Shown: piece after piece, positions 8,649-62,913 of the stretch
How the letters are laid out: each line of letters starts with the position of its first letter
Numbering within the stretch: the stretch's first letter is position 1
DNA from: an uncultured Gammaproteobacteria bacterium
GTDB taxonomy: Bacteria > Patescibacteriota > Microgenomatia > UBA8517
NCBI GenBank assembly: GCA_964635715.1
Contig: CAZWNZ010000003.1
Span: 37,153 to 101,152 of the forward strand
Length of the DNA: 64,000 nt
Direction: 5' to 3'
Translations under genes and position numbers: made by a program
The notes under the pieces: generated by a model
Database searches by the model: none
The model's input: the letters and a program-made list of their open reading frames with translations, nothing else
What the model was told of the DNA's origin: nothing

Positions 8649-9200
8649 TTAAGGTATGCAGTTAGGCCAAATTCCATTTTTTCCTTTTGATAGGGCATAA
8701 GAGGCAGTTTGTACTGATTCCTCGGCAGAATATCTGAGATCTGGATTTGTATCTTCTCCGATTTCAGCTCTTAGGTTTTTCCAGGTTGTCGATCCAAATT
8801 GGTAAAGTCCCGCATATCCCGCATTTTCTGCATTAGATCTAAATCCTGATTCACAGATAGCTATATATCTAAGAACGTTTGTATCTACTCCATATTGTGC
8901 CGCAAATCTATCGATAAAAGCATTGACTTCGGATGAGGAAGCCGGAGTACTTGCCGGTAGCGGGTTTGGCGATTCAGTCATTTTTGGTTCAGGAGAAGAG
9001 ACTTTAGGGGAAGGAGATGGTGCTGAAGAAGGTGTTGTTTTGGGTGTTGGGGTTATTGCTTCAATTGGGGAAGGACTTGGTATAAATGTTTCTTCCCCCA
9101 TACCTAAGACATCCCTTCCGGATCTTTTTCCAAGAATATACATACCTGTCAGATACAGCAGTGAAATGAGAGCAAGGATAAAGTATAGTCTGTTTTTCAT
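8649..9200 (-). CDS. transglycosylase-like (Rpf/SLT-like) domain protein with Pro/Ser/Thr-rich linker
   Basis: N-terminal TM helix, a PT-rich spacer, and a C-terminal CESGFRSN..GLYQFGSTTW motif of the transglycosylase-like domain. Confidence 0.6.
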   Translation of the reverse strand: MKNRLYFILALISLLYLTGMYILGKRSGRDVLGMGEETFIPSPSPIEAITPTPKTTPSSAPSPSPKVSSPEPKMTESPNPLPASTPASSSEVNAFIDRFAAQYGVDTNVLRYIAICESGFRSNAENAGYAGLYQFGSTTWKNLRAEIGEDTNPDLRYSAEESVQTASYALSKGKNGIWPNCIP

Positions 9201-10299: not shown

Positions 10300-11451
10300 T
10301 CAGATTCCCATTTTCGTTTTGACTCTGGATATAAATGTGTCTAATTCCGCTTTGGTAATTGAATCATCGGGGCAAAACTTAGCCGGGTTTTGAGAACATC
10401 CGGAAGTAAAACCCATTTTTCCAAAAAGCTGAACGTATTTAAATAGAGGGTGTGTTTGGGGAACGTCTGCAAAAATTGGCACAGTATCTGTTTCGTCCGG
10501 ACTAAATCCGGCGATTCGGATTAAAAAAGTCACCGCATCAGATCTGGTTAATTCTCTTTCCGGACAAAATCTTAATGGGTTAACATTGCATCCTGTGGTT
10601 ATTTTATTTTTATAGAAAGTTTCCACGGCCTGATAATAGGGGGTATTCAAAGAGACATCGGCAAAGGAGGGAGAGGTATTCACGTATATTTGCATGCCAA
10701 ATTTTTCAACTAAATATATTGCAGTGTCACCTCGTTTTATATATTTATATTCTGTCGGAGTCGGAGTGCTTATTGATATTGGAGTTTCGGTTGGGGGGGT
10801 GGTTGGGTTGATGGATAGAGGGGTGGTTAAACTTATTATGTTTGATGGTTGCCCCGACGCCACAACAACAGTTAATGGATCAAATTTCAGGACAGTTGCT
10901 CCTCCTGCCAATACTTTAAAATTTATCTGTGCCAACACACCTATCCCGCTTTTTGTGTATGCTTTTGTTTGATCCACTTTTGCGCCTAAAACAATTTTTG
11001 CGTGACCTATTGCGGAACCATCAGACTTATTAATAGTTCCTTCCTTTAAAGTTATAGGAAGCATATCCCCCATGGGTTGTATGTTTTGAGCCTCTAATTT
11101 TGTGGTTTCATAGGTGACATCAATATCAGCAGCACTGGCATTTAAACCTTTTGTATCTATAACAATAGCCACTGAAAATATATCACCAACCGTTAAATTT
11201 GTTGTTGATGGGGAAAAACTAAGCTCAGCTCCTGACGCCTGAGTTTCCATTGTTTGTTTTTCTTTAATCATGGAGGAACCAATAATAGTTGATACGGTAA
11301 GTACTAGCACAAGAAAAACACTAAAAATTGTTTTACTTTTTGTTCTGAGATGATTAAAAAAATGCTTAAGCTTTAATTTCGTTGAGTTAAAGAAATTTCT
11401 TTCTGGTGTATTCACAACAAAATTTGTGTTTACGATATTATTATTTTCCAT
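10300..11451 (-). CDS. surface protein: N-terminal TM anchor, cohesin-like domain, PT linker, two SLH-like repeats
   Basis: Residues about 75-195 (GDIFSVAIVIDTKGLNASAADIDVTYETTKLEAQNI ... SGIGVLAQINFKVLAGGATVLKFD) match the type-I cohesin beta-sandwich pattern. The C-terminus has two ~55-aa FADVPxxHPxxxxVxxx..TxGC..NPxxFCP...TRxE repeats of SLH character. Confidence 0.55.
   Translation of the reverse strand: MENNNIVNTNFVVNTPERNFFNSTKLKLKHFFNHLRTKSKTIFSVFLVLVLTVSTIIGSSMIKEKQTMETQASGAELSFSPSTTNLTVGDIFSVAIVIDTKGLNASAADIDVTYETTKLEAQNIQPMGDMLPITLKEGTINKSDGSAIGHAKIVLGAKVDQTKAYTKSGIGVLAQINFKVLAGGATVLKFDPLTVVVASGQPSNIISLTTPLSINPTTPPTETPISISTPTPTEYKYIKRGDTAIYLVEKFGMQIYVNTSPSFADVSLNTPYYQAVETFYKNKITTGCNVNPLRFCPERELTRSDAVTFLIRIAGFSPDETDTVPIFADVPQTHPLFKYVQLFGKMGFTSGCSQNPAKFCPDDSITKAELDTFISRVKTKMGI
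10431..10473. repeat. 43-nt exact repeat shared with 11690..11732 (inside the SLH-like repeat coding regions of both genes)
   Basis: gaacgtatttaaatagagggtgtgtttggggaacgtctgcaaa occurs identically at both positions. Confidence 0.8.
10577..10632. repeat. 56-nt exact repeat shared with 11835..11890
   Basis: gggttaacattgcatcctgtggttattttatttttatagaaagtttccacggcctg is identical in both genes. Confidence 0.8.
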
Positions 11452-13081
11452 AGTTGGTAATTAAATTATTGTAGTCGGTCAGGTTGTAAAATGTTCCAAA
11501 GTTTTCTTTAATTAAGTTAAAATCACTAATATTTACGTGGCTATCGGCGTCAAAATCGCCAGTAACAATTCTTTCTTTAATTCTTGAAATAAATATGTCT
11601 AAATCTGCTTTAGTAATTGCTGTATCCGGGCAGAATTTTGCCGGATTGGCAGAGCAGCCGCTGGTAATTCCCAATTTGGCGAAAAGTTGAACGTATTTAA
11701 ATAGAGGGTGTGTTTGGGGAACGTCTGCAAATTTCGGCGATGAATCGGTGATATTGGGCATATATCTTGCAATTCTAAGTAAATATGTAGCGGCTTCAGC
11801 TCTGGTTAAAGTATTATTAAGGCAAAACTTAGCCGGGTTAACATTGCATCCTGTGGTTATTTTATTTTTATAGAAAGTTTCCACGGCCTGGTAGAAAGGA
11901 GATGTGGCGGGCACGTCAGTAAAAGTGGGTGAGTTGGGGATAATTGTTTGCATGTTAAATTGTTCAGTTAAATAATAAGCTGCTCTGCCACGGGTAAAGC
12001 TATTTAAGAGTTTTGTAATGACACCAACTACCTTTTTTGGGGTACCATTGTTATTGTATATACCAAGACCCACATCGGCACTTCCATTTGCGCAGTTATT
12101 TGGAGACTTTAAGGATGAGTATCCCCAAAGACTGAACCCAAAATTATTATTTATTGCGTAATTAATCAAAAGTCTGTCTGTTTCCGCTTGAGTGTCCTCA
12201 TTTCCGTATTGTGGACATGAGCTTGCTCCGAACTCGCCAAGAATGAGCGGCGTGTTGGGATAATATTTTTTGTAACGGCTTACTTGTTGATTCATTTCAT
12301 TAATAACTTGCGACGCGTTTAAGTTTCTTTGTACAGTGCCGTAATTATTAAAACTAAGAAAATCAAATGAAATTGGGTCTTCAATAGGTAAAATGCTTTT
12401 TGATAGAGGAACTGAAAGTTTGTCAATTAACGAGTCATCGTGATATCCGATCAAAAACTTGGACCTCAACTCAGTGGGTAATCTTTTAGGCAAGCTACCC
12501 AAGGTGGGTCGCAAAAGAGCAGCATGAGCCTCAGGTGAATAAGGGGAAACTATTGTATTTGTACCTTCAGTAAACAATAGAATATAAACAGTGTCACTAT
12601 ATTCGCTGATACGGGTTAAGAATTCTTTCATATATGATTCAAAAGCAGCGTATTGGACGGGGTCTTTGAGCCACGAATCGTCATTTATTCCGATAGGGTG
12701 GGACCGTCCGTCATTCCCGCGACCCCAAAGATAATTCATCGGAAGAATTGCTTTCATGTTATTTGCCTTTAGAAGAGCCAATGTGTTCTTCAAATTTTCA
12801 AAATTTTGGTCATTATAAATCGGAGTTGGTAAAGCTTGAGGTTCAAATTTACTCCAAACCATATAAAGCCACACAGTATTAAAACCGGCTGCTTTGATTT
12901 TTTGTAAGTTTGCGGGCAAAGTTGTCCAAGGAGTTTGATAATCTCCTGTGCTTCCGGGAAATGCGTAAGCTACACTCCTGATATTCCAATAAGGGAGACT
13001 ATTTGTTTGCGCGTTGATGGTCGATTTTAAAGTTGTTAAAAAAAAGAGGGCTAAGAATATTGCAAATAGAACCTTTTTCAT
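11441..13081 (-). CDS. secreted GH5-like glycoside hydrolase with two SLH-like repeats and a C-terminal dockerin-like repeat
   Basis: Signal peptide; GH5-type catalytic motifs (LFTEGTN acid/base region, LILGEFG nucleophile); SLH-like repeats paralogous to the neighbouring gene; C-terminal GDFDADSHVNISDFNLIKENFG matching the dockerin Ca-binding repeat DxDxDGxVNxxD. Confidence 0.55.
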   Translation of the reverse strand: MKKVLFAIFLALFFLTTLKSTINAQTNSLPYWNIRSVAYAFPGSTGDYQTPWTTLPANLQKIKAAGFNTVWLYMVWSKFEPQALPTPIYNDQNFENLKNTLALLKANNMKAILPMNYLWGRGNDGRSHPIGINDDSWLKDPVQYAAFESYMKEFLTRISEYSDTVYILLFTEGTNTIVSPYSPEAHAALLRPTLGSLPKRLPTELRSKFLIGYHDDSLIDKLSVPLSKSILPIEDPISFDFLSFNNYGTVQRNLNASQVINEMNQQVSRYKKYYPNTPLILGEFGASSCPQYGNEDTQAETDRLLINYAINNNFGFSLWGYSSLKSPNNCANGSADVGLGIYNNNGTPKKVVGVITKLLNSFTRGRAAYYLTEQFNMQTIIPNSPTFTDVPATSPFYQAVETFYKNKITTGCNVNPAKFCLNNTLTRAEAATYLLRIARYMPNITDSSPKFADVPQTHPLFKYVQLFAKLGITSGCSANPAKFCPDTAITKADLDIFISRIKERIVTGDFDADSHVNISDFNLIKENFGTFYNLTDYNNLITNYGK

Positions 13082-14111: not shown

Positions 14112-14540
14112 TTAAATAAAATCCAAAATTCCTTCGGGATATAAAATTAATTTTCCGTTTTTATAATCGTCGATATTCTGCCAGGAGGCAATTCCTCCTT
14201 CGTTTGAGTCAAGAATCTGTAGCTCAGTTTTTTCATACAAATCTTTGTTTACAAGATCTCCTTCAAAAACCATTAGTATTTCATGCCCATTTTTGCCTTC
14301 GTAGGTAAAAATGGTTTCTAGCGTTGTTATAAATCTCACGTTTTTCAGATTGGTTCCCAATTCTTCCTGAAACTCGCGTCTTAAAGCCGCCTTTGCTCTT
14401 TCTCCGAATTCAATTCCACCTCCAAGAAGACGATAAAAAGTTTCTTTTTTAACAGAATCAAATCCGACTCCGGCCAAAATCTTTTCTTTGTGTTTAATAA
14501 TACATACCGCCAAAGGTCTTATGGCATTTTCTTTTAGCAT
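14112..14540 (-). CDS. NUDIX hydrolase
   Basis: Nudix box GGGIEFGERAKAALRREFQEELG. Confidence 0.75.
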   Translation of the reverse strand: MLKENAIRPLAVCIIKHKEKILAGVGFDSVKKETFYRLLGGGIEFGERAKAALRREFQEELGTNLKNVRFITTLETIFTYEGKNGHEILMVFEGDLVNKDLYEKTELQILDSNEGGIASWQNIDDYKNGKLILYPEGILDFI

Positions 14541-14629: not shown

Positions 14630-15073
14630 ATGAATTTTATGAAACGGGTGGTGCAAAAAGTAATTGCCGGAGTAGCCCTCGAAAACGGCGGTAAAATTTT
14701 AATTATTCAAAGAACGGCGAATGAAGATATCTTTCCAAATCTTTGGGAACTTCCGAGCGGGAAGAAAGAACCAATGGAAAAGATTGAAGAAGCTGCAAAA
14801 CGCGAAGCCAAAGAAGAAACAGAACTTGAAGTCAAAATAGGTAAGCCAATTAGTGTTTTTAACTTCGGTTGGGAAAAAGAAGATGAAATAAGAGATGCTA
14901 CGGAAATAGTTTTTCTGGCAACTTTAGAAGGCAAATCTGAAGTTAAGCTTAGCGACGAACATCAAAACTTTGCATGGGTGAATAAAGAGGAAATTGAAAA
15001 TTACAACGCTTCAAAAGAAACCAAAGACGTGGTTAAAGAAGCTTTGTCTAATCTTCCAAAGATCAATCCCTAA
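14630..15073 (+). CDS. NUDIX hydrolase
   Basis: Nudix box PSGKKEPMEKIEEAAKREAKEETELEV. Paralog of 15856..16299. Confidence 0.75.
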   Translation: MNFMKRVVQKVIAGVALENGGKILIIQRTANEDIFPNLWELPSGKKEPMEKIEEAAKREAKEETELEVKIGKPISVFNFGWEKEDEIRDATEIVFLATLEGKSEVKLSDEHQNFAWVNKEEIENYNASKETKDVVKEALSNLPKINP

Positions 15074-15855: not shown

Positions 15856-16299
15856 ATGAGTAGTAAAAAAATCGTTCAAAAAGTAGTCTTAGGAGGCGTC
15901 GTTTTTGATAAGGGACAGAAGTTTCTAGTAATGCAAAGAAATGAAAATGAGGATATTTACCCAGGTTTATGGGAATTGCCAAGTGGTAAGAAGGAAGAGT
16001 TAGAAGATGCTGAAGCCTCACTTTTGAGAGAAATTAAAGAAGAAGCAGGTATAGATGTAGAAATCATTTTGCCTGTTTCTATTTTTAATTATCAGATCGA
16101 AAAAACGGAAGAGATTCGTGATTCAACCCAAATTAATTTTCTGGTCAAAATGAAGCGTGATCAGGAGGTTCATATTAGCAAAGAGCATCAAAATTTTGCT
16201 TGGGTAGGCAAAGACGAACTGAACAAATACAATTTTTCTGATGCAACCAAAAGGGTTTTGCTAAAAGCATTTGAAATTTTGGAAAAGTTAAATATTTAA
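15856..16299 (+). CDS. NUDIX hydrolase
   Basis: Nudix box PSGKKEELEDAEASLLREIKEEAGIDV. Confidence 0.75.
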   Translation: MSSKKIVQKVVLGGVVFDKGQKFLVMQRNENEDIYPGLWELPSGKKEELEDAEASLLREIKEEAGIDVEIILPVSIFNYQIEKTEEIRDSTQINFLVKMKRDQEVHISKEHQNFAWVGKDELNKYNFSDATKRVLLKAFEILEKLNI

Positions 16300-18214: not shown

Positions 18215-19417
18215 TTAGATTGAATAATTCTTAAGAGTTTTTTTGATTATTGAAGCATATTCCTTCAGTACTTTTTTGTATTCCGGGGTATCGTATATGT
18301 CAATCGGAAATTTTATGGCATTGTTAAAAAAGTTTTCAGCTATTGGGAAATCACCTTTCTTATAATTTACCAGTCCCTTATATCCAGGATAAAGTAGGCT
18401 CGGGTCTTGGAACAACTTCAGTAAATTAAGGGGACAGGTTGAACCCGGCATGTCTGCGTCCAAAATACCATTTTCGATTAACTTATCGCAGAATTCTTTG
18501 GTGGATATTGAAATCTTTTTAGGGTTAATTTGGATAACAAATGCGTACCAACTAGGTTCCACACCGTCAATAAACGCTGGAGTTTTTATGGCCTCAACGT
18601 CTTTAAGTAACGTCGCCAAATATTTTGCATTGTTATTCATTATTTTATGCCACATCTGTAGATGGCTCATTTGCTCTTCAGCAATCGCAATGGCAAGAGG
18701 ATGGGCTCGAAGCTTTAATCCAAAGCCCGTTAATGCGTAAGGGTAATATTTGGAATCTGGAAGAATTTCCTGTTTGCATCTTTTGTTGTAGTGCCCAAAA
18801 AGTAGTCCACGTTCATAGACCTCACTGTCGTCTGTGACCATTATTCCGCCCTCACCTCCGGTAATAATTTTCTGACCCTGTAAACTAAACGCCCCAACTG
18901 TTCCGAAAGTGCCTACGAGTTTGTCTTTGTATATTGCTCCATGGGCATGCGAGACATCTTCTATGAGTTTTAGATTATGTTTTTTACAGATGGCAATAAT
19001 TTTATCCATTTCACAGGGAACACCCCACATATGAGTAACAACCAACCCTTTTGTCTTGGGGGTAATAAGTGACTCAATTTTATTCGGATCGATGTTACCA
19101 TCTTCTCTTGCGTCGCAAAGTATCGGAATTGCTCCGGTTTGAAATAATGGAGTAACTGTGGCAAAAAAAGTGTATGCCGGGCATATTACTTCGTCTCCAG
19201 GGCCAAAACCACAACCAACCATCGCAGCATGTAACGACGCGGTTCCGGAACTAAAAAGCAGGGCATATTTGGTACCATACACTTTTGCAAATTTGTTCTC
19301 AAATCTCTCAAAAATCCCTGATCTGTTATAAATAGAAATTTCCCCTTTATTTAGTTCAGTATTGACAGCCTTTTTAGTCTCTTTTGTTATATGAGGCCAA
19401 ATGTATTTGTAATTCAT
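18215..19417 (-). CDS. DegT/DnrJ/EryC1/StrS-family PLP-dependent sugar aminotransferase
   Basis: FSLQGQKIITGGEGGIMVTDD lysine-containing motif typical of the family. Confidence 0.85.
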   Translation of the reverse strand: MNYKYIWPHITKETKKAVNTELNKGEISIYNRSGIFERFENKFAKVYGTKYALLFSSGTASLHAAMVGCGFGPGDEVICPAYTFFATVTPLFQTGAIPILCDAREDGNIDPNKIESLITPKTKGLVVTHMWGVPCEMDKIIAICKKHNLKLIEDVSHAHGAIYKDKLVGTFGTVGAFSLQGQKIITGGEGGIMVTDDSEVYERGLLFGHYNKRCKQEILPDSKYYPYALTGFGLKLRAHPLAIAIAEEQMSHLQMWHKIMNNNAKYLATLLKDVEAIKTPAFIDGVEPSWYAFVIQINPKKISISTKEFCDKLIENGILDADMPGSTCPLNLLKLFQDPSLLYPGYKGLVNYKKGDFPIAENFFNNAIKFPIDIYDTPEYKKVLKEYASIIKKTLKNYSI

Positions 19418-51355: not shown

Positions 51356-53278
51356 ATGAAGCTACTTGTAACAGGTGCGGCGGGATTTATTGGCGCAAAT
51401 TTTGTCCACTATTGGCTGGAAAAATACCCAAATGATGAAGTAAGGGTAATCGATGCTTTGACGTACGCCGGGAATATTGAAAATTTATCTCCTGTAATTA
51501 AAAAAATTAAGTTTTTTGAAGCTGATATTAATGATAGGGTAAAAGTATCTGAGGCAATGAAAGGGGTGGATGTGGTTGTTCATTTTGCGGCAGAAAGTCA
51601 TGTTGACAGGAGTGTTTTTGACCCCAGTAGATATTGGCAGACAAATGTTCATGGTACCTTGACCCTTCTTGAAGAGGCCCAAAAGTTGGGAATTAATAGA
51701 TTTCATCATATTTCAACAGATGAAGTATATGGTGAATTGCCTTTGGGTACAGATGAAAAATTTAGTGAAGAAACTCCCTATGCTCCGCGCCCCGACAATT
51801 TGTATGCTCTTAGCAAAGCAGAAGCCGATAAAGTGGTAATGGATTTTTATCAGAGAACGGGGATGTATATTACGATTTCAAATTGTTCCAATAATTACGG
51901 TCCATATCAATTTCCCGAGAAATTTATTCCAATTGTCGTTACTAATTTAATTGACGGAATACAAGTTCCTGTACATGGAGATGGTCGAAATGAAAGGGAT
52001 TGGATACATACAATGGATCATGCTTCAGCAATAGATCTTATTTTACAAAAAGGCAAAAGAGGAGAGACTTATCTGGTTGGTTCCAACAATGATAGAAATA
52101 ACGATTATATAGCCAGAAAAGTGGTTGAGCTTTATGGAAAGGATGATAGCGTTATTCGTCATGTACCGGATAGACACAGTAACGATAGACGCTATGCAAT
52201 TAATGCCACAAAAATTATTACAGATCTTGGTTGGAAACCAAAGATCGGCCGTGACAATTTTGATGACGGTTTGAAGGAAACTATAAAATGGTATAAAGAA
52301 AACCAGGATTGGTGGCGCCCGCTTCTGAAAAGACGGGCTCTTATAACCGATGACGAGAAAACCATCAGTGCTTTTATTACTTTAGACCGTGAAACCGGAA
52401 AAACTAAGTTCATTTTTGGAAAGCTTCAAGACCAAGATAAGATAAAACTTCCGGAAAGCGACCTCAAAGAACATTTTGTTGAGGAAAACCTTGTTCGCTA
52501 TGAAATTGTTGAGAAAAATATTCAGTCTAAAAAATGGTATCAGGCAAGTAGTGAAGAAATTAAAAAAGAAATACATGCTTTAGCTATGAACCCTTCAACT
52601 TTTGGGTATGTTGAAGATTTGGCAATGAGGGAAGATAAAATTGACGGAGATACACTTTTGAAACTAACCAAAATAGTTCACGGTGACGCTGAATATGGTA
52701 TTTATGGAATCGGCACATGGTTTGAAGTTGAAAACAAAAAGAAAGAAAGAAGAATGGAGGGTTATTATTCGTGGGGTTGGGGACCTAAGTCCGGCGCAAA
52801 ACTTCTCGTTCTCATTAAAAGACATGGTGAGATAACTCATTTTGCATTTCAAAGAGAGGCAAAATTCCCGACAGGTTCGGTAGTTTACAATCTTGCCGGA
52901 GGGTTCCCTAGATTGAACGAAAGTGTTTTGAATTTCATTATCCGCTCTCTTAAAAAAGATTTAAATCTTAATGTTAAGGATGGTGATGTAACCTTGACTG
53001 AAATAGTTAGTCTTGGCCGTGTTGTTCCAGATTCAGGTATGACAAACAATCACCCAAATCTGTATGCAATAATATTGGAACTTGGGGATTCAAAATTCCC
53101 TGAGGTTCAAGCAGGAGACAAATTTGAAGAAGGCGAAGGTATTGTCCTTTGGCCTATAAGTGAAGTTTCGGAGATTGTTAGTAAATGTGACGATTCTTAC
53201 TTTTTGTCTGCCATATCCAGACTAACTCTATCCGGAATATATACAATAAATTTATCGGTAAATAATAAAAAAGAATAA
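51356..53278 (+). CDS. rfbB: dTDP-glucose 4,6-dehydratase fused to a ~300-aa C-terminal domain of unknown function
   Basis: The N-terminal 330 aa carry LLVTGAAGFIGANFV and YALSKAEADKVV (YxxxK). The C-terminal half has no canonical motif except a degenerate Nudix-like segment GGFPRLNESVLNFIIRSLKKDL (G-X5-E-X7-R). Confidence 0.75.
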   Translation: MKLLVTGAAGFIGANFVHYWLEKYPNDEVRVIDALTYAGNIENLSPVIKKIKFFEADINDRVKVSEAMKGVDVVVHFAAESHVDRSVFDPSRYWQTNVHGTLTLLEEAQKLGINRFHHISTDEVYGELPLGTDEKFSEETPYAPRPDNLYALSKAEADKVVMDFYQRTGMYITISNCSNNYGPYQFPEKFIPIVVTNLIDGIQVPVHGDGRNERDWIHTMDHASAIDLILQKGKRGETYLVGSNNDRNNDYIARKVVELYGKDDSVIRHVPDRHSNDRRYAINATKIITDLGWKPKIGRDNFDDGLKETIKWYKENQDWWRPLLKRRALITDDEKTISAFITLDRETGKTKFIFGKLQDQDKIKLPESDLKEHFVEENLVRYEIVEKNIQSKKWYQASSEEIKKEIHALAMNPSTFGYVEDLAMREDKIDGDTLLKLTKIVHGDAEYGIYGIGTWFEVENKKKERRMEGYYSWGWGPKSGAKLLVLIKRHGEITHFAFQREAKFPTGSVVYNLAGGFPRLNESVLNFIIRSLKKDLNLNVKDGDVTLTEIVSLGRVVPDSGMTNNHPNLYAIILELGDSKFPEVQAGDKFEEGEGIVLWPISEVSEIVSKCDDSYFLSAISRLTLSGIYTINLSVNNKKE

Positions 53279-58198: not shown

Positions 58199-58909
58199 GT
58201 GGATACTAAAATTTCTGAATTATCCGTATTTCTGCCCGCATTTAATGAGGAAGGGAATATCGAAAGTACGGTAAAAAAGACAATCGCGGCCTTGAGCCAA
58301 AATATCAAAAAATGGGAACTGATTGTGGTTGATGATGGATCAGCTGATTCCACAGGAGAAATAGTTAACAGGATAGCCGGATTGAATGGTGACGTAAGAG
58401 TTATTAGGCATGAAAAAAATCTTGGTTACGGCGCTTCTTTAAAAACGGGCTTTTATAATTCCCGATATCCTTGGATTGCATTTACCGATTCTGATGGACA
58501 ATTTGATTTTACTGAAATTGACAAGTTTATTGAAAAACAACGAGAAACAGGGGCAGACATGGTAATAGGTTACTACAAGAAAAGAAGAGCTTCTTTAACA
58601 AAAATTATGACAAGTAAACTTTGGGAAATGGTGGTCTTCTTACTCTTCGGACTTAAAGTTAAAGATATAGATTGCGGTTTTAAACTAGTTTCAAAAAAGG
58701 TAATCGACAAAATACCAAAACTTGAAAGTGAAAGAGGTGCCTTTATCAGCAGCGAGCTTTTAATAAAAGCCAGGAAACAGGGTTTTAAGATTGTTGAAAT
58801 TCCCGTCACCCATTATCCAAGAACAAAAGGTGGTGGAACAGGAAGGAATCTTAACGTCATTTTAAGAAGCTTTGTAGACTTATTTAGACTTTGGAAAAAA
58901 CTTTTATAA
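58199..58909 (+). CDS. GT2 polyprenyl-phosphate sugar synthase-like glycosyltransferase
   Basis: LSVFLPAFNEEGNI ... VVDDGSADST ... FTDSDGQ DXD-type motifs. Confidence 0.8.
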   Translation: MDTKISELSVFLPAFNEEGNIESTVKKTIAALSQNIKKWELIVVDDGSADSTGEIVNRIAGLNGDVRVIRHEKNLGYGASLKTGFYNSRYPWIAFTDSDGQFDFTEIDKFIEKQRETGADMVIGYYKKRRASLTKIMTSKLWEMVVFLLFGLKVKDIDCGFKLVSKKVIDKIPKLESERGAFISSELLIKARKQGFKIVEIPVTHYPRTKGGGTGRNLNVILRSFVDLFRLWKKLL

Positions 58910-58920
58910 ATATTAAAATT

Positions 58921-60459
58921 ATGAGAATTAAAAATTGGATTAAAAAAAATCCTGTTGAATTTTGGATATTGTTCGCAATTCTTATAATCGGCGCCTTTTG
59001 CCGTTTTTACAGAATTGATGAATATATGGTTTTTTTAGGAGATGAGGGAAGGGATGCCATTATAGCTAGAAGAATTTTTACCGAGTTGCACCCGCCGCTT
59101 ATTGGCCCCGGAACTTCTGTGGGAAGTATGTATTTGGGTCCTTTGTACTACTACATGATGGCAATTCCTCTTTTAATTGCAGGATTCTCACCAATTGGGC
59201 CGGCAGTTATGGTTGGCACCCTTGGTGTTACCACAATAGCTTTTATTTGGTGGATAGGAAAAACTTGGTTTAATAAATCAGCCGGCCTAATTGCGGCTGC
59301 GATTTACTCAATTGCTCCGGCGGCGATTGTTTACTCGCGTTCATCCTGGAACCCGAATATAATGCCGTTTTTTGCACTTCTTTGCATATATTCTATTTGG
59401 AAAGTTTGGCGCAAAAATGAATTTAACTGGCTGATCGTTTTGGGCATTTCTTATGCTTTTGTTCTGCAATCACACTACCTGGGTCTTCTTTTGACCCCAA
59501 CGTTGCTTTTATTTTGGATTCTGTCATTGAGAAATTTGAAATTGATTAAAAATTCAAAATTGAAAATTAGGAATTTTTGGAAAAAGACAATACTTGGTGT
59601 TGGATTTTTTCTGATCCTCATGAGTCCTCTTTTAATTTTTGATATCAGACATGATTGGATGAACACGAGATCAATTTATAAGTTTATTGTCGAACGTCAA
59701 ACAAATTTTTCTATGAATTTTAATTTTACAGTCTCGCGACTGCCCGAAATATTTAATTTAATTAACAAAAGTTTAATTGTGGGCAAAAATTCTTTAGCAG
59801 CAGTCTGTTCCTCAATCGTTATGGCCATCGGAATTATTTATGCATTAATAAAAAGCCGTGTTGGAAAGAAAAAGGTTGGAATAAAATCAGAATATTGGAT
59901 ACTTTTTTCCTGGCTAATGTTTGGCCTTGTCGGTTTTGGAATATATAAACAAAATATTTATGATCATTATTTTGGATTCTTGTTTCCGGTTCCATTCTTT
60001 TTTATAGGTGTTATTATTTCAAAGTTGATATCCGGTAGAATTCCGGCAAAAATATTAGGAGCCGTTTTACTGGTCTATCTAATTTTAATTAATTTAGTAT
60101 CAAGTCCTCTCTTAAAAGAACCAAACAAACTGTTGCAGAGAAGCATTCATGTTTCAAAAATTATTGAAGAAAATTCGGAGGGACAAAAGTTTAATATAGC
60201 CGTAATTGCCGATACAAACTATGAAGCCGGATATAAATATTTCTTACTGAAAGACGGTTATCCTGTTGTTGATATAGATTCTCAAGTAAAAGAATCGGTA
60301 ACCAAGCAGCTTTTTGTTGTCTGCGAACTGTTACCGAACAGTAAATGTGATCCGACACATTCGCCTAAGGCAGAGGTTGCAAATTTTGGATGGAGTAAAA
60401 TAGATAAAAGTTGGGAAGTTGATGGTACGATAGTGTATAAATTAGTGCACACACAATGA
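58921..60459 (+). CDS. GT-C (ArnT/PMT family 39-like) membrane glycosyltransferase
   Basis: N-terminal FLGDEGRDAIIARRIF loop motif after TM1 and ~12 TM helices. The start is trimmed to the ATG after the upstream stop. Confidence 0.6.
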   Translation: MRIKNWIKKNPVEFWILFAILIIGAFCRFYRIDEYMVFLGDEGRDAIIARRIFTELHPPLIGPGTSVGSMYLGPLYYYMMAIPLLIAGFSPIGPAVMVGTLGVTTIAFIWWIGKTWFNKSAGLIAAAIYSIAPAAIVYSRSSWNPNIMPFFALLCIYSIWKVWRKNEFNWLIVLGISYAFVLQSHYLGLLLTPTLLLFWILSLRNLKLIKNSKLKIRNFWKKTILGVGFFLILMSPLLIFDIRHDWMNTRSIYKFIVERQTNFSMNFNFTVSRLPEIFNLINKSLIVGKNSLAAVCSSIVMAIGIIYALIKSRVGKKKVGIKSEYWILFSWLMFGLVGFGIYKQNIYDHYFGFLFPVPFFFIGVIISKLISGRIPAKILGAVLLVYLILINLVSSPLLKEPNKLLQRSIHVSKIIEENSEGQKFNIAVIADTNYEAGYKYFLLKDGYPVVDIDSQVKESVTKQLFVVCELLPNSKCDPTHSPKAEVANFGWSKIDKSWEVDGTIVYKLVHTQ

Positions 60460-61439
60460 ACTATAAAGAATCGGTAAAAATACTTTCAGAAATAAAAAAG
60501 GCAGACAAAATTTTAGTAAACTGCCACAGGGGACCGGATTCTGATTCGGTTGGTTCTGCCTTGGCTTTATCACAGATATTACAGGAGATGGGGAAAGAAG
60601 TCATGGTAATTTGTCCCAGCGATATTCCTTCGGATCTGATGTTTCTCAAAGGTGCAGAAAAAATTGTCAGGGTTAATTTTACTTCATTTGATTTTACTGA
60701 TTATGGCCTTTTTGTAATTCTTGACTCGTCAACTTACTCGATGGTTACAGGGATGAAAGATTCTGAAAGACCAACTATAAATTCAGTTGTTATAGATCAT
60801 CATTTTTCCAATGACAAATTCGGAAAAATTAATTTGGTTGATTCGAAAATGACATCTACAGGCGAATTGCTTTACAGATTATTTAAAGATTGGAAAGTGA
60901 CTGTTTCAAAAGAGATAGCGGAGTGTTTACTTACAGGAATAATTGGTGACACAGGAACTTTTCAATATCAGAATGTAGGTTCGGAAACTTTAGAGGTCGC
61001 GGCGGATTTGATGAAAAAAGGTGCCGACAAAGATAGAATTGTTTACAATATTTACAGAAGCATTGAATTTAAGGAAGTAAAAATGTGGGGTAAGTTTGTG
61101 GAAAGTATGATGATTGATGAAGGTTTCATTTGGTCTGCAATTCCCCTCTCAACTTATAAGGATTTTGGCGAATATATTTATGCAAAGGAAGACGTTGCAA
61201 ATTTATTTTTCCCGATCATCAAAGGAACAGAATTTGGAATTGTGATGGTGGAGACTTCCGACGGAGTTCTCTCGGTTAGTTTCAGATCCAGAACAGGGTT
61301 TGATGTTGCCAAGATTGCTGAAGAAATCGGTGGGGGAGGACATAAACTGGCGGCAGGGGCACGGATTGAAGGAATTCCTTTTAACGATGCTGTTAATTTA
61401 GTTTTAAAAGCTGCCAGAAAGCATGTTAAAAAAGATTAA
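60456..61439 (+). CDS. nrnA: DHH/DHHA1 phosphoesterase (NrnA-like oligoribonuclease/pAp phosphatase)
   Basis: ILVNCHRGPDSDSVGSALAL, VVIDHHFS (DHH) and GGGGHKLAAGA (DHHA1). Confidence 0.8.
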   Translation: MNYKESVKILSEIKKADKILVNCHRGPDSDSVGSALALSQILQEMGKEVMVICPSDIPSDLMFLKGAEKIVRVNFTSFDFTDYGLFVILDSSTYSMVTGMKDSERPTINSVVIDHHFSNDKFGKINLVDSKMTSTGELLYRLFKDWKVTVSKEIAECLLTGIIGDTGTFQYQNVGSETLEVAADLMKKGADKDRIVYNIYRSIEFKEVKMWGKFVESMMIDEGFIWSAIPLSTYKDFGEYIYAKEDVANLFFPIIKGTEFGIVMVETSDGVLSVSFRSRTGFDVAKIAEEIGGGGHKLAAGARIEGIPFNDAVNLVLKAARKHVKKD

Positions 61440-62913
61440 AAAGACTTCAATATATAAATTCTTACTGATTTTGATTTTAGGTCTGGCGTCCTTTTTGAGA
61501 TTTTATCGCCTTTCAGATCTTCTAGGTTTTTGGTATGACCAGGGAAGAGATGCCTTGGTAATTTGGGATATGGTCTATAACGGAAAGTTTACCCTTATTG
61601 GGCCAATGATGGGATTTACCGGAATATTTAGAGGGGCTTGGTATTACTACTTAATAGCTCCGCTTTATGCGTTAGGTCATGGTAACCCGATATTTGCTTC
61701 ATTTTTTTTGATAGCCACAACTATTGTTGCGTTGTATCTTTTGTATAAATTGGGTAAGGAGATTGGTGGTGAAAAAACCGGACTTACGGCTATCTTAATA
61801 GCTTCGGTTTCGATGTATATAATAGGCGCTTCACGCTGGCTTTCCGACCCGACACCTACACTTTTGATCAGTGTACTTTTGGTTTGGATGTTGTTTAAAT
61901 ATTCAGAAGGTAAAAAATGGACACTTCCTCTTTCAGGTTTTCTGGCAGGAATGGCTATGCAATTTAGTGCTGCGGCCGAAGTTTTTTACATCCCCGCGAT
62001 AATTTTAGTTGTTGTTTTACTTCGGAAAAGCGTAAGAGCGAATTTTAAATACATATTGTTAACGGCAGGGGCATATATTTTACCTTTTGCTCCCCAGCTG
62101 CTTTTTGAAATACGCCATCCGGGAGTTCAAAGTAGCGCACTTTTTAACTTCATTTTTCATGAAAATACTTTTACTTATGCTTTTTGGGAAATAATAAAAA
62201 CAAGAATTCCTTTTGATTACAATATGTTTGCTTCTAAATTTTGGATAAACGGAGGAACTCTTTTTGTTCCATTTTTTGTGATTTTTATTTTGCTTTTAAT
62301 AATCCATTGGAAGAAACTTTGGAAAAACGACAAATTCAAAATTATTTTCATTATGGCAGTATCTCCGCTTATCGGAACTTTGTTTTTTGTCAGCAACCTT
62401 GGTGGGGTATATGAATATTATTTTACCGGTTACTATTTAGTTTGGATATTGTTGTTTTCTTATGTTTGTATGGATTCTTTTAAAAATACATTCATCAAGA
62501 TAACTGCTGCAATTTTTATTATCGTTTTGTTGGCAATGAATATACATGCTTATACTAAACAATACTCAGTACCTTTAGATGATACCGAAATTATTGCCTT
62601 CAGCAATCAAATTGAAGCAATTGACTGGATTTATAAAAGTACGGAAGGACGGGAATTTAATGTTGATGAATATGTTCCGCCGGTAATCCCTTATGCTTAC
62701 CAGTATTTGTTTCAATGGTTAGGCAATGAGAAGTATGGAAGGCTTCCTCAGGACAAGCAGGTTTCGCTATTGTATACTTTATACGAAGTCGACACCTCCC
62801 ATCCTGAGCGTTTACAGGCTTGGTTGGATAGACAGGAAGGAATAGGAACAGTTTTAAGTGAGGAAAGGTTTGGCGGAATTGTTGTCCAAGAAAGGGTAAG
62901 AATAAACAAATGA
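61423..62913 (+). CDS. GT-C (ArnT/PMT family 39-like) membrane glycosyltransferase, paralog of 58921..60459
   Basis: FWYDQGRDALVIWDMV loop motif and the same polytopic layout. Confidence 0.6.
   Translation: MLKKIKKTSIYKFLLILILGLASFLRFYRLSDLLGFWYDQGRDALVIWDMVYNGKFTLIGPMMGFTGIFRGAWYYYLIAPLYALGHGNPIFASFFLIATTIVALYLLYKLGKEIGGEKTGLTAILIASVSMYIIGASRWLSDPTPTLLISVLLVWMLFKYSEGKKWTLPLSGFLAGMAMQFSAAAEVFYIPAIILVVVLLRKSVRANFKYILLTAGAYILPFAPQLLFEIRHPGVQSSALFNFIFHENTFTYAFWEIIKTRIPFDYNMFASKFWINGGTLFVPFFVIFILLLIIHWKKLWKNDKFKIIFIMAVSPLIGTLFFVSNLGGVYEYYFTGYYLVWILLFSYVCMDSFKNTFIKITAAIFIIVLLAMNIHAYTKQYSVPLDDTEIIAFSNQIEAIDWIYKSTEGREFNVDEYVPPVIPYAYQYLFQWLGNEKYGRLPQDKQVSLLYTLYEVDTSHPERLQAWLDRQEGIGTVLSEERFGGIVVQERVRINK

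Follow-up and report, generated by a model that had tools for sequence, protein, structure and literature searches.

The cell surface of Clostridium (Acetivibrio) thermocellum carries OlpA and OlpC, proteins that combine one type I cohesin with surface-layer homology (SLH) repeats and hold individual dockerin-bearing enzymes at the surface. A related arrangement is encoded on the minus strand of contig CAZWNZ010000003.1, within the 64-kb stretch of DNA analysed here (the window; coordinates without a locus prefix refer to it, and all features of the pair lie on the minus strand). The arrangement is composed of two overlapping genes. The first (11441..13081) encodes a 546-aa protein, predicted to be secreted, with a glycoside hydrolase family 5 (GH5)-like domain, an SLH module and a short C-terminal dockerin. 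The second (10300..11451) encodes a 383-aa protein with a single cohesin, which is predicted to be anchored. It is considered fairly likely that the pair is a surface-display cassette, consisting of an enzyme and its translationally coupled holder, in an ultra-small, Woesebacteria-like bacterium belonging to the candidate phyla radiation (CPR). The pair is probably a minimal cellulosome-style way to keep enzymes on the cell surface, where "cellulosome-style" refers to the architecture only.

As in OlpA and OlpC, a single type-I-like cohesin is found on an SLH-anchored protein, and the fold matches of the window's cohesin include that of OlpC (4dh2). The holder encoded here differs from OlpA and OlpC by an extra N-terminal hydrophobic anchor and by having only two full SLH repeats. 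Its partner enzyme bears an SLH module of its own and a dockerin with one calcium loop, the two genes overlap and the host is CPR-like. The ClcC/ClcD pair of Cellulosilyticum lentocellum is likewise a two-gene unit of a single-cohesin protein and a dockerin-GH5 enzyme, and a functional complex of the two has been shown experimentally (PMC13487519). The window has the same composition of a protein with one cohesin and a GH5-type enzyme fused to a dockerin, as judged from sequence and predicted structure. ClcC contains CBM3 and X2, has no SLH, targets the substrate and is cell-free, and the dockerin of that system is canonical (PMC13487519), whereas the pair described here has no carbohydrate-binding module, carries SLH on both partners and has a truncated dockerin. 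A cellulosome is defined by a scaffoldin with at least two cohesins and a dockerin-fused glycoside hydrolase (PMC13487519); the 383-aa protein has a single cohesin domain and the window a single cohesin open reading frame (ORF), which places the pair outside this definition. The concept of a two-gene cohesin and dockerin-enzyme unit is already known from OlpA/OlpC and ClcC/ClcD. What is new is that a short form of the dockerin is conserved, that a coupled cassette occurs in CPR-type contigs and that both partners bear SLH.

Dockerins with one recognisable repeat have been described in Ruminococcus flavefaciens FD-1, where the group 2 C-terminal dockerins show only the first calcium repeat and were proposed to be non-functional or to have a single binding mode (PMC2930009). 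Compared with that group, by its description only, the dockerins reported here have a conserved second helix and a PYTIFDYN remnant, are found in CPR-type contigs and are encoded by genes coupled to cohesin genes. Cohesins and dockerins also occur outside cellulosomes and beyond the cellulolytic Firmicutes, across life, in parent proteins that are mostly non-catalytic (Peer et al. 2009, as cited in PMC13487519). The non-cellulosomal cohesins of A. fulgidus (2xdh) and C. perfringens (2jh2, 2vo8) are among the fold matches of the window's cohesin; in contrast to such modules, the dockerins here are carried by glycosidase-type enzymes in an operon with the presumed cohesin. For a cultivated Saccharibacterium, a dockerin-domain protein without a known partner is reported in passing to be essential (PMC10633639). 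The literature searched contained no account of cohesin-dockerin pairs in CPR, and for Patescibacteria it contained only this passing mention of one dockerin-domain protein.

The enzyme and cohesin genes overlap by 11 nt (11441..11451). The 3' end of the enzyme gene reads ...AAC TAT GGA AAA TAA, and the ATG of the cohesin gene lies within TAT GGA, embedded in the codons for the enzyme's terminal YGK and its stop. An earlier account of this DNA, made without database searches (the sequence-only reading), had described two minus-strand ORFs with an overlap of this length, and both ORFs and the overlap were recovered from the sequence. The stop/start overlap suggests that the two genes are translationally coupled. 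The start codon of the 383-aa protein is supported by its N-terminus, since MENN is shared with the closest relatives (MENNTPTIG, MENKTTID, MENNVDIST). The window contains about 60 ORFs, of which exactly one encodes a cohesin, and exactly one dockerin-like loop is present; the two are adjacent, so the side-by-side placement of cohesin and dockerin-type genes holds as originally described. A promoter and terminator scan gave nothing above chance, and neither the 546-aa enzyme nor the 383-aa cohesin protein matched an NCBIfam entry. Proteins identical to those of the pair are encoded on a 107.7-kb NCBI contig. The window has a G+C content of about 36% and encodes bacterial SecA and Lon. The SecA exhibits 85% identity to that of Candidatus Woesebacteria and 82% identity to Candidatus Microgenomates entries, and on this basis the host is placed within the CPR/Patescibacteria as Woesebacteria-like.

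The cohesin protein starts with a K/R-rich N-terminus followed by a 22-residue hydrophobic segment (aa 41-62, 11266..11331), which was read from the sequence and is modelled by AlphaFold2 (AF2) as part of a helix (aa 39-66). This segment is predicted either to anchor the protein in the membrane or to act as a long signal peptide, and a hydrophobic N-terminal segment is also present in the consensus of 50 cohesin relatives. The cohesin domain (aa 75-216, 10804..11229) is followed by a Pro/Thr-rich linker read from the sequence (aa 217-235, 10747..10803) and an SLH module (aa 239-378, 10318..10737). The Pfam Cohesin profile (PF00963, cutoff 24.1 bits) matches aa 83-201 with 28.9 bits for the whole protein and 32.6 bits for the domain alone. 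The AlphaFold model of aa 75-215, built with an alignment of relatives, is a beta sandwich with a predicted local distance difference test (pLDDT) score of 97-98 and fits the nine-stranded sandwich of solved cohesins. When this predicted structure was compared with the PDB using Foldseek, the best 50 matches were all cohesins. The top match was CaCohA2 of C. acetobutylicum (6kgf/6kgc), with a template modelling (TM) score of 0.72-0.74, a root-mean-square deviation of 3.6 and 21% identity. Type I cohesins lead the list (6kgf/6kgc, P. cellulosolvens ScaB 4ums and C. cellulolyticum 1g1k; target-normalised TM 0.67-0.74, 18-21% identity) with type II and other cohesins close behind, and by this fold ranking the domain is described as type-I-like. 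The central 120 aa or so had been read as a type I cohesin; the cohesin call agrees with the Pfam score, and type I cohesins are the leading PDB matches. The Pfam and Foldseek results speak against a generic Ig-like domain in its place.

A HMMER search of 1.84 billion representative proteins identified 443 relatives of the cohesin domain at E<=1e-3, of which 51 reached E<=1e-10. The majority are short and contain a single cohesin that begins 40-80 residues into the protein. Several cohesins are present in a few of them, such as P0257 with nine matched stretches and a C-terminal dockerin. Pfam Cohesin was identified in 47 of the 50 relatives scanned, and Dockerin_1 additionally in 13 of the 50. 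Several of the cohesin relatives (P0262, P0266 and L040:8465-9382) feature a C-terminal Cys-rich, knottin-like motif after a Pro/Thr linker (e.g. CIPGGASCSGFNDTRCCAPNLCRNPNGQGFYC), at the position that the SLH module occupies in the protein of the window. At four loci, three single-cohesin genes overlap in tandem (L017:156-2728, L009:750-3298, L023:137-3144, L006:2632-5326). Some short dockerin tails are found on cohesin proteins within such arrays: at L017 and L023 the middle cohesin protein itself terminates in a short dockerin, and the cohesin proteins of these two loci could chain onto one another.

The enzyme is predicted to begin with a signal peptide (aa 1-24, MKKVLFAIFLALFFLTTLKSTINA|Q; 13010..13081), which was read from the sequence by its hydrophobic core and INA-Q site and coincides with an AF2 helix (aa 2-17). 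AlphaFold confidently models the catalytic domain (aa 28-362, 11996..13000) as a (beta/alpha)8 barrel, most of which has a pLDDT above 90. Its PF00150 score of 35.5 bits exceeds the cutoff of 23.5, but the best stretch covers only aa 51-119 and profile positions 16-88 of 272. Foldseek returned GH5 enzymes of several subfamilies as the best PDB matches (11-17% identity, E down to 3e-9), including GH5_18 beta-mannosidases (6moy, 7lr1), Op5Man5 (7bob), endoglycoceramidase II (2osw) and GH5_4 endoglucanases. Searches of the PDB by sequence yielded only marginal matches, to a GH5 (E 0.022) and to Sap SLH (E 0.42). In the AF2 model, E172 (FTEG) is located after strand 4 (aa 165-170) and E283 (GEFG, aa 282-285) closes strand 7 (aa 279-284). 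Across 17 homologues, E283 does not vary and E172 is conserved to at least 90%. E172 is proposed to be the acid/base and E283 the nucleophile, which would fit the retaining mechanism of clan GH-A. The NE motif expected at the acid/base position is replaced by F-T171-E172-G; T171 is invariant in the five closest homologues, and FTE is the consensus of the 17 homologues. Because TE replaces NE, strict GH5 membership is doubtful and clan GH-A is the safer label. A cellulase label was set aside on account of the same Thr before the acid/base Glu, and the domain is referred to as GH5-like of clan GH-A. The description of a signal-peptide GH5-like hydrolase with a GEFG motif in the sequence-only reading thus stands for the Pfam match, the barrel, E283 and, by reading, the signal peptide, but not for GH5 in the strict sense.

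A profile scan of genome contigs with five catalytic-domain sequences recovered four loci. The same GH5-like domain is found within a 3663-aa multi-domain protein in a metagenome-assembled genome (MAG) of Woesearchaeota (DPANN; L001:4106-15097) and within a 1775-aa protein in a Saccharibacteria MAG (L002:7832-13159) whose C-terminus is a half-plus-two SLH module with Cys pairs. No cohesin ORF was identified in the contig regions examined for these two loci. Orthologues of the catalytic domain also carry dockerins, which are canonical in P0002 and P0005 and similarly short in P0009.

The last 40 residues of the enzyme (aa 507-546, TGDFDADSHVNISDFNLIKENFGTFYNLTDYNNLITNYGK; 11444..11563) are assigned as a short dockerin on the basis of hhalign and the family alignment. 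The tail is composed of a calcium loop (D509-D520), a helix (aa 521-529), the remnant TFYNLTD and a last helix (aa 537-546). The loop DFDADSHVNISD is EF-hand-like, with D or N at positions 1, 3, 5, 9 and 12 (D509, D511, D513, N517 and D520), and belongs to the loop-helix stretch GDFDADSHVNISDFNLIKENFG at aa 508-529. It is the only such loop, as the second dockerin segment retains only the loop end and the helix. When aligned by hhalign with a profile of 14 two-loop dockerins from relatives, the tail matched with a probability of 94.9% (E 4e-8) over 40 columns; the profile members had been selected by a loop regular expression, which makes the match of the first half, but not that of the second, partly circular. 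Loop 1 and its helix are fully aligned, a 14-column gap falls on the linker between the repeats and on most of loop 2, and the last helix is aligned. The score of the tail was 35.9, compared with 8.8 +/- 2.1 (maximum 16.4) for 200 shuffles, a difference of about 13 standard deviations, and the second half alone scored 19.0. The dockerin-like calcium-binding tail of the sequence-only reading is upheld as to homology by the hhalign match and its shuffle control, and the repeat is EF-hand-like; however, it contains one calcium loop instead of two and scores below the Pfam cutoff.

A C-terminal sorting signal was also considered for the tail and is unlikely, as no hydrophobic segment is present. 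Some proteins recovered by the tail scan described below (L032, L033, L035, L037 and L039) do end in PEP-CTERM-like signals and belong to a different family from the short dockerins. At L032:3774-5183, L033:575-2080, L035:4353-5255 and L039:3777-5255, a single dockerin-like loop and helix (GDFNADGKVDLTDFGILKANFG) precede the PEP-CTERM-like signal. The extract of L033 shows only the end of that loop and helix, and the signal is composed of VPEPS and a hydrophobic, Arg-rich end. From their sequences, these proteins are read as a different use of the one-repeat dockerin-like motif.

A metagenome scan with four tails identified 32 loci. About 19 independent tails fit the consensus PGDxNGDGHVNIxDYNLLVxNF-GNPYTIFDYNxLVxNYGK, and all are located at the extreme C-terminus of their proteins. 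The heads to which they are attached include GH10, GH39, BNR_4, BNR_2 and GH5-like domains as well as others without a family assignment. None of the nine short-tail proteins scanned matched Pfam Dockerin_1 at E<=1e-3.

The cohesin side was sampled through the contigs of the closest cohesin relatives (six loci: L005, L006, L007, L040, L041 and L042). The same-strand gene immediately upstream of the cohesin gene is dockerin-tailed in five of these six (L005, L007, L040 with two pairs, L041 and L042), which supports by comparison the idea of a cognate pair. At L005, a GH10 gene terminates in ...GDFNHDGQVNKADYDLLISNFGNPYTIYDYNNLVANYNK two bases ahead of the cohesin gene. At L007, the upstream gene terminates in a half-plus-two SLH module with Cys pairs and ...GDFNHDNKINIDDYTLLQANFGNPYTIFDYNLIIGNFGK one base ahead of the cohesin gene; this is the SLH-SLH-short-dockerin and cohesin architecture of the window with another head. 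One pair of L040 features a short dockerin and the other a two-loop dockerin, while at L041 and L042 the cohesin start is overlapped by dockerin-ended genes. At the remaining locus, L006, three cohesin genes follow one another, and a gene for a GH39 protein with a short tail lies one gene away. The overlap of the YGK-stop codons with ATG GAA AAT (MEN) is common to the window, L040, L041 and L042, and a variant form is found at L017. On the tail side, about 12 independent loci have room downstream of the tail gene; a cohesin gene lies directly downstream in five of them and 1.2 kb upstream in one, and none is present in six. Adjacency as a rule for every dockerin gene was rejected, given the tail loci and the three orthologues of the enzyme that have no such neighbour. 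As judged from these gene neighbourhoods, the rule is asymmetric: the cohesins of this clade accompany an upstream dockerin enzyme, while dockerin enzymes are also found on their own, as they are in bacteria that produce cellulosomes.

The SLH module of the enzyme (aa 363-502, 11576..11995; pLDDT 80-95) is composed of a half repeat (TRGRAAYYLTEQF) and two SLH repeats with the Cys pairs C412/C420 and C476/C484. PF00395 scores 30.1-37 bits in the enzyme, above the cutoff of 20.8, and 12.7-18.1 bits in the cohesin protein, below it. The module of the cohesin protein was assigned by its similarity to that of the enzyme (65% identity between the 142-aa modules, E 4e-66), and it likewise contains a half repeat (KRGDTAIYLVEKF) and two repeats with Cys pairs. 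Both half repeats resemble the TRAEAATYLLRIA helix, and the half-plus-two layout is also found at L002 and L007. The sequence-only reading had described two paralogous SLH-like repeats with an unusual TxGC...FCP pair in each protein. The SLH assignment and the paralogy are retained, but in each module a half repeat precedes the two repeats, and the first repeat of the enzyme reads FCL. The Cys pair turned out not to be unusual: GC...FCP is the majority consensus of 79 aligned SLH homologues (from 238 matches) and marks a large, widespread subfamily, whose named members come from Chloroflexota, Acidobacteria and similar groups. The SLH-coding DNA of the two genes forms direct repeats 1258 nt apart, with 234 nt at 74% identity (10318-10551 and 11576-11809), and a 59-nt block (10577-10635 and 11835-11893) differs at a single base (98%). 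This near-identical block suggests a recent duplication or gene conversion between the neighbours.

In the proposed mechanism, the enzyme would be secreted through Sec and would act as a GH5-like retaining glycosidase of clan GH-A. The holder, which is probably translationally coupled to it, would be anchored in the membrane by its N-terminus and would present one type-I-like cohesin, the Pro/Thr linker and the paralogous SLH module. The short dockerin would bind the neighbour's cohesin via one calcium ion, using the calcium-stabilised F-hand and the retained last helix, and with only these two elements a single binding mode or face is proposed. The enzyme would in this way be tied to a membrane- and wall-anchored holder at a ratio of roughly 1:1, and the SLH modules would fix both proteins to a cell-wall polymer. 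The analysis establishes which domains are present, their predicted folds, the overlap of the genes and the recurrence of the pair; we infer the binding from the gene neighbourhood, and likewise infer its calcium dependence, the SLH ligand, the substrate and the cellular location.

Several observations weigh against such a cassette. The isolated tail reaches only 15.2 bits with Dockerin_1 (PF00404) against a cutoff of 22.9 (E 0.024, profile positions 2-23 of 57), and the whole 546-aa protein has no PF00404 match at E<=1. A dockerin is expected to have two segments of about 22 residues; in the tail the first is complete and the second is without loop positions 1-7. AF2 places two helices in the tail (aa 518-528 and 534-545) with a pLDDT of only about 50, and in the short-dockerin family alignment no member diverges more than the tail of the window. 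The SLH modules of both proteins contain a half motif and two full motifs where three tandem motifs would be expected. A cohesin tether seems superfluous for an enzyme that already has an SLH anchor of its own. No cohesin gene adjoins about half of the tail-bearing genes, and none was found next door to the three dockerin-bearing orthologues of the enzyme.

The features of the tail itself could be explained if it were a decayed, non-binding remnant of a dockerin, with the two proteins anchored separately by their own SLH modules and their genes adjacent for co-regulation only. The score below the Dockerin_1 cutoff, the missing second calcium loop, the low pLDDT and the enzyme's own SLH anchor would all be in keeping with this, as would the view that the one-repeat dockerins of R. 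flavefaciens group 2 are possibly non-functional (PMC2930009). Decay would not be expected, however, to leave the tail strongly conserved on unrelated heads at about 19 loci, including the PYTIFDYN remnant and the last helix, nor is the short tail displaced from the operon position of two-loop dockerins directly upstream of cohesins. A decayed remnant is therefore held to be improbable.

The solitary dockerin genes raise a different alternative, in which both modules are functional but are not each other's partners. The cohesin would hold dockerins encoded elsewhere or on another cell, or the dockerin would dock to another cohesin, such as one of a host cell or of a multi-cohesin scaffold like P0257. 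Since tail genes and enzyme orthologues without a cohesin neighbour exist, the dockerins of some genomes must find non-adjacent cohesins; moreover, multi-cohesin proteins and cohesin-plus-dockerin adaptors occur in the cohesin family, and the view of this genome extends to 64 kb only. Set against this are the single cohesin and single dockerin of the window, encoded by overlapping genes, and the almost constant presence of a dockerin-tailed gene with a coupled start codon directly upstream of the clade's cohesins, a pattern expected of stoichiometric partners. That the two proteins are strangers to each other is accordingly thought unlikely. The proposal that the cohesin is a generic Ig-like spacer and the tail a chance acidic motif draws on a weak Pfam match of the cohesin protein to the HYDIN/VesB Ig-like domain (E 0.091) and is very improbable, being already contradicted by the Cohesin score above its cutoff, the 50 cohesin folds, the Cohesin and Dockerin_1 matches among the relatives and the distance of the tail from its shuffles.

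For the surface-display cassette, the apparent redundancy of two anchors might have its own explanation. As an idea only, the contact between cohesin and dockerin might unite two SLH modules, each incomplete with its two repeats, in a single composite anchor to the wall. A broader and rather speculative extension, for which we see a limited chance, is a "plug-and-display" system of Microgenomates-type CPR. Swappable hydrolase heads would carry a one-calcium short dockerin, each with its own co-translated cohesin holder, and the C-terminus of the holder (SLH, Cys-knot or dockerin) would set the placement, with the composite SLH anchor formed at this locus. Such enzymes could serve in attacks on the envelopes of hosts or neighbours in an episymbiotic lifestyle. 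If true, this would be a widespread unannotated system based on a new one-calcium dockerin subtype that is missed by standard hidden Markov models (HMMs).

CPR/Patescibacteria have tiny genomes, apparently live attached to other cells and possess envelope proteins that are largely uncharacterised. The cassette offers a concrete hypothesis for how scarce hydrolases could be kept on the surface of a CPR cell. As current HMMs miss the short tail, the number of dockerins in CPR genomes is probably underestimated. A 40-residue tag and a 140-residue receptor would also make a compact affinity pair. The locus further bears on the question in the cellulosome field of whether one-repeat dockerins function (PMC2930009), since the truncated form found here is conserved and occupies the operon position of full dockerins.

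Another anchored envelope hydrolase is encoded about 1 kb from the gene pair (8649-9200, minus strand). This 183-aa protein has a hydrophobic anchor at the N-terminus, a linker rich in Pro, Ser and Thr, and an SLT lytic transglycosylase domain (31.6 bits). The window is rich in envelope-glycan genes (18215-19417, 51356-53278 and 58891-62913), which encode a DegT-type aminotransferase, a 640-aa protein with an N-terminal half similar to NDP-sugar dehydratases/epimerases and two PMT_2 glycosyltransferases. These genes could be related to the polymer bound by the SLH modules. Just upstream of the pair is a cluster of three small paralogues of 142-147 aa (14112-14540 on the minus strand, 14630-15073 and 15856-16299 on the plus strand), which by eye appear to resemble Nudix hydrolases through a GKKEPMEKIEEAAKREAKEETELE box.

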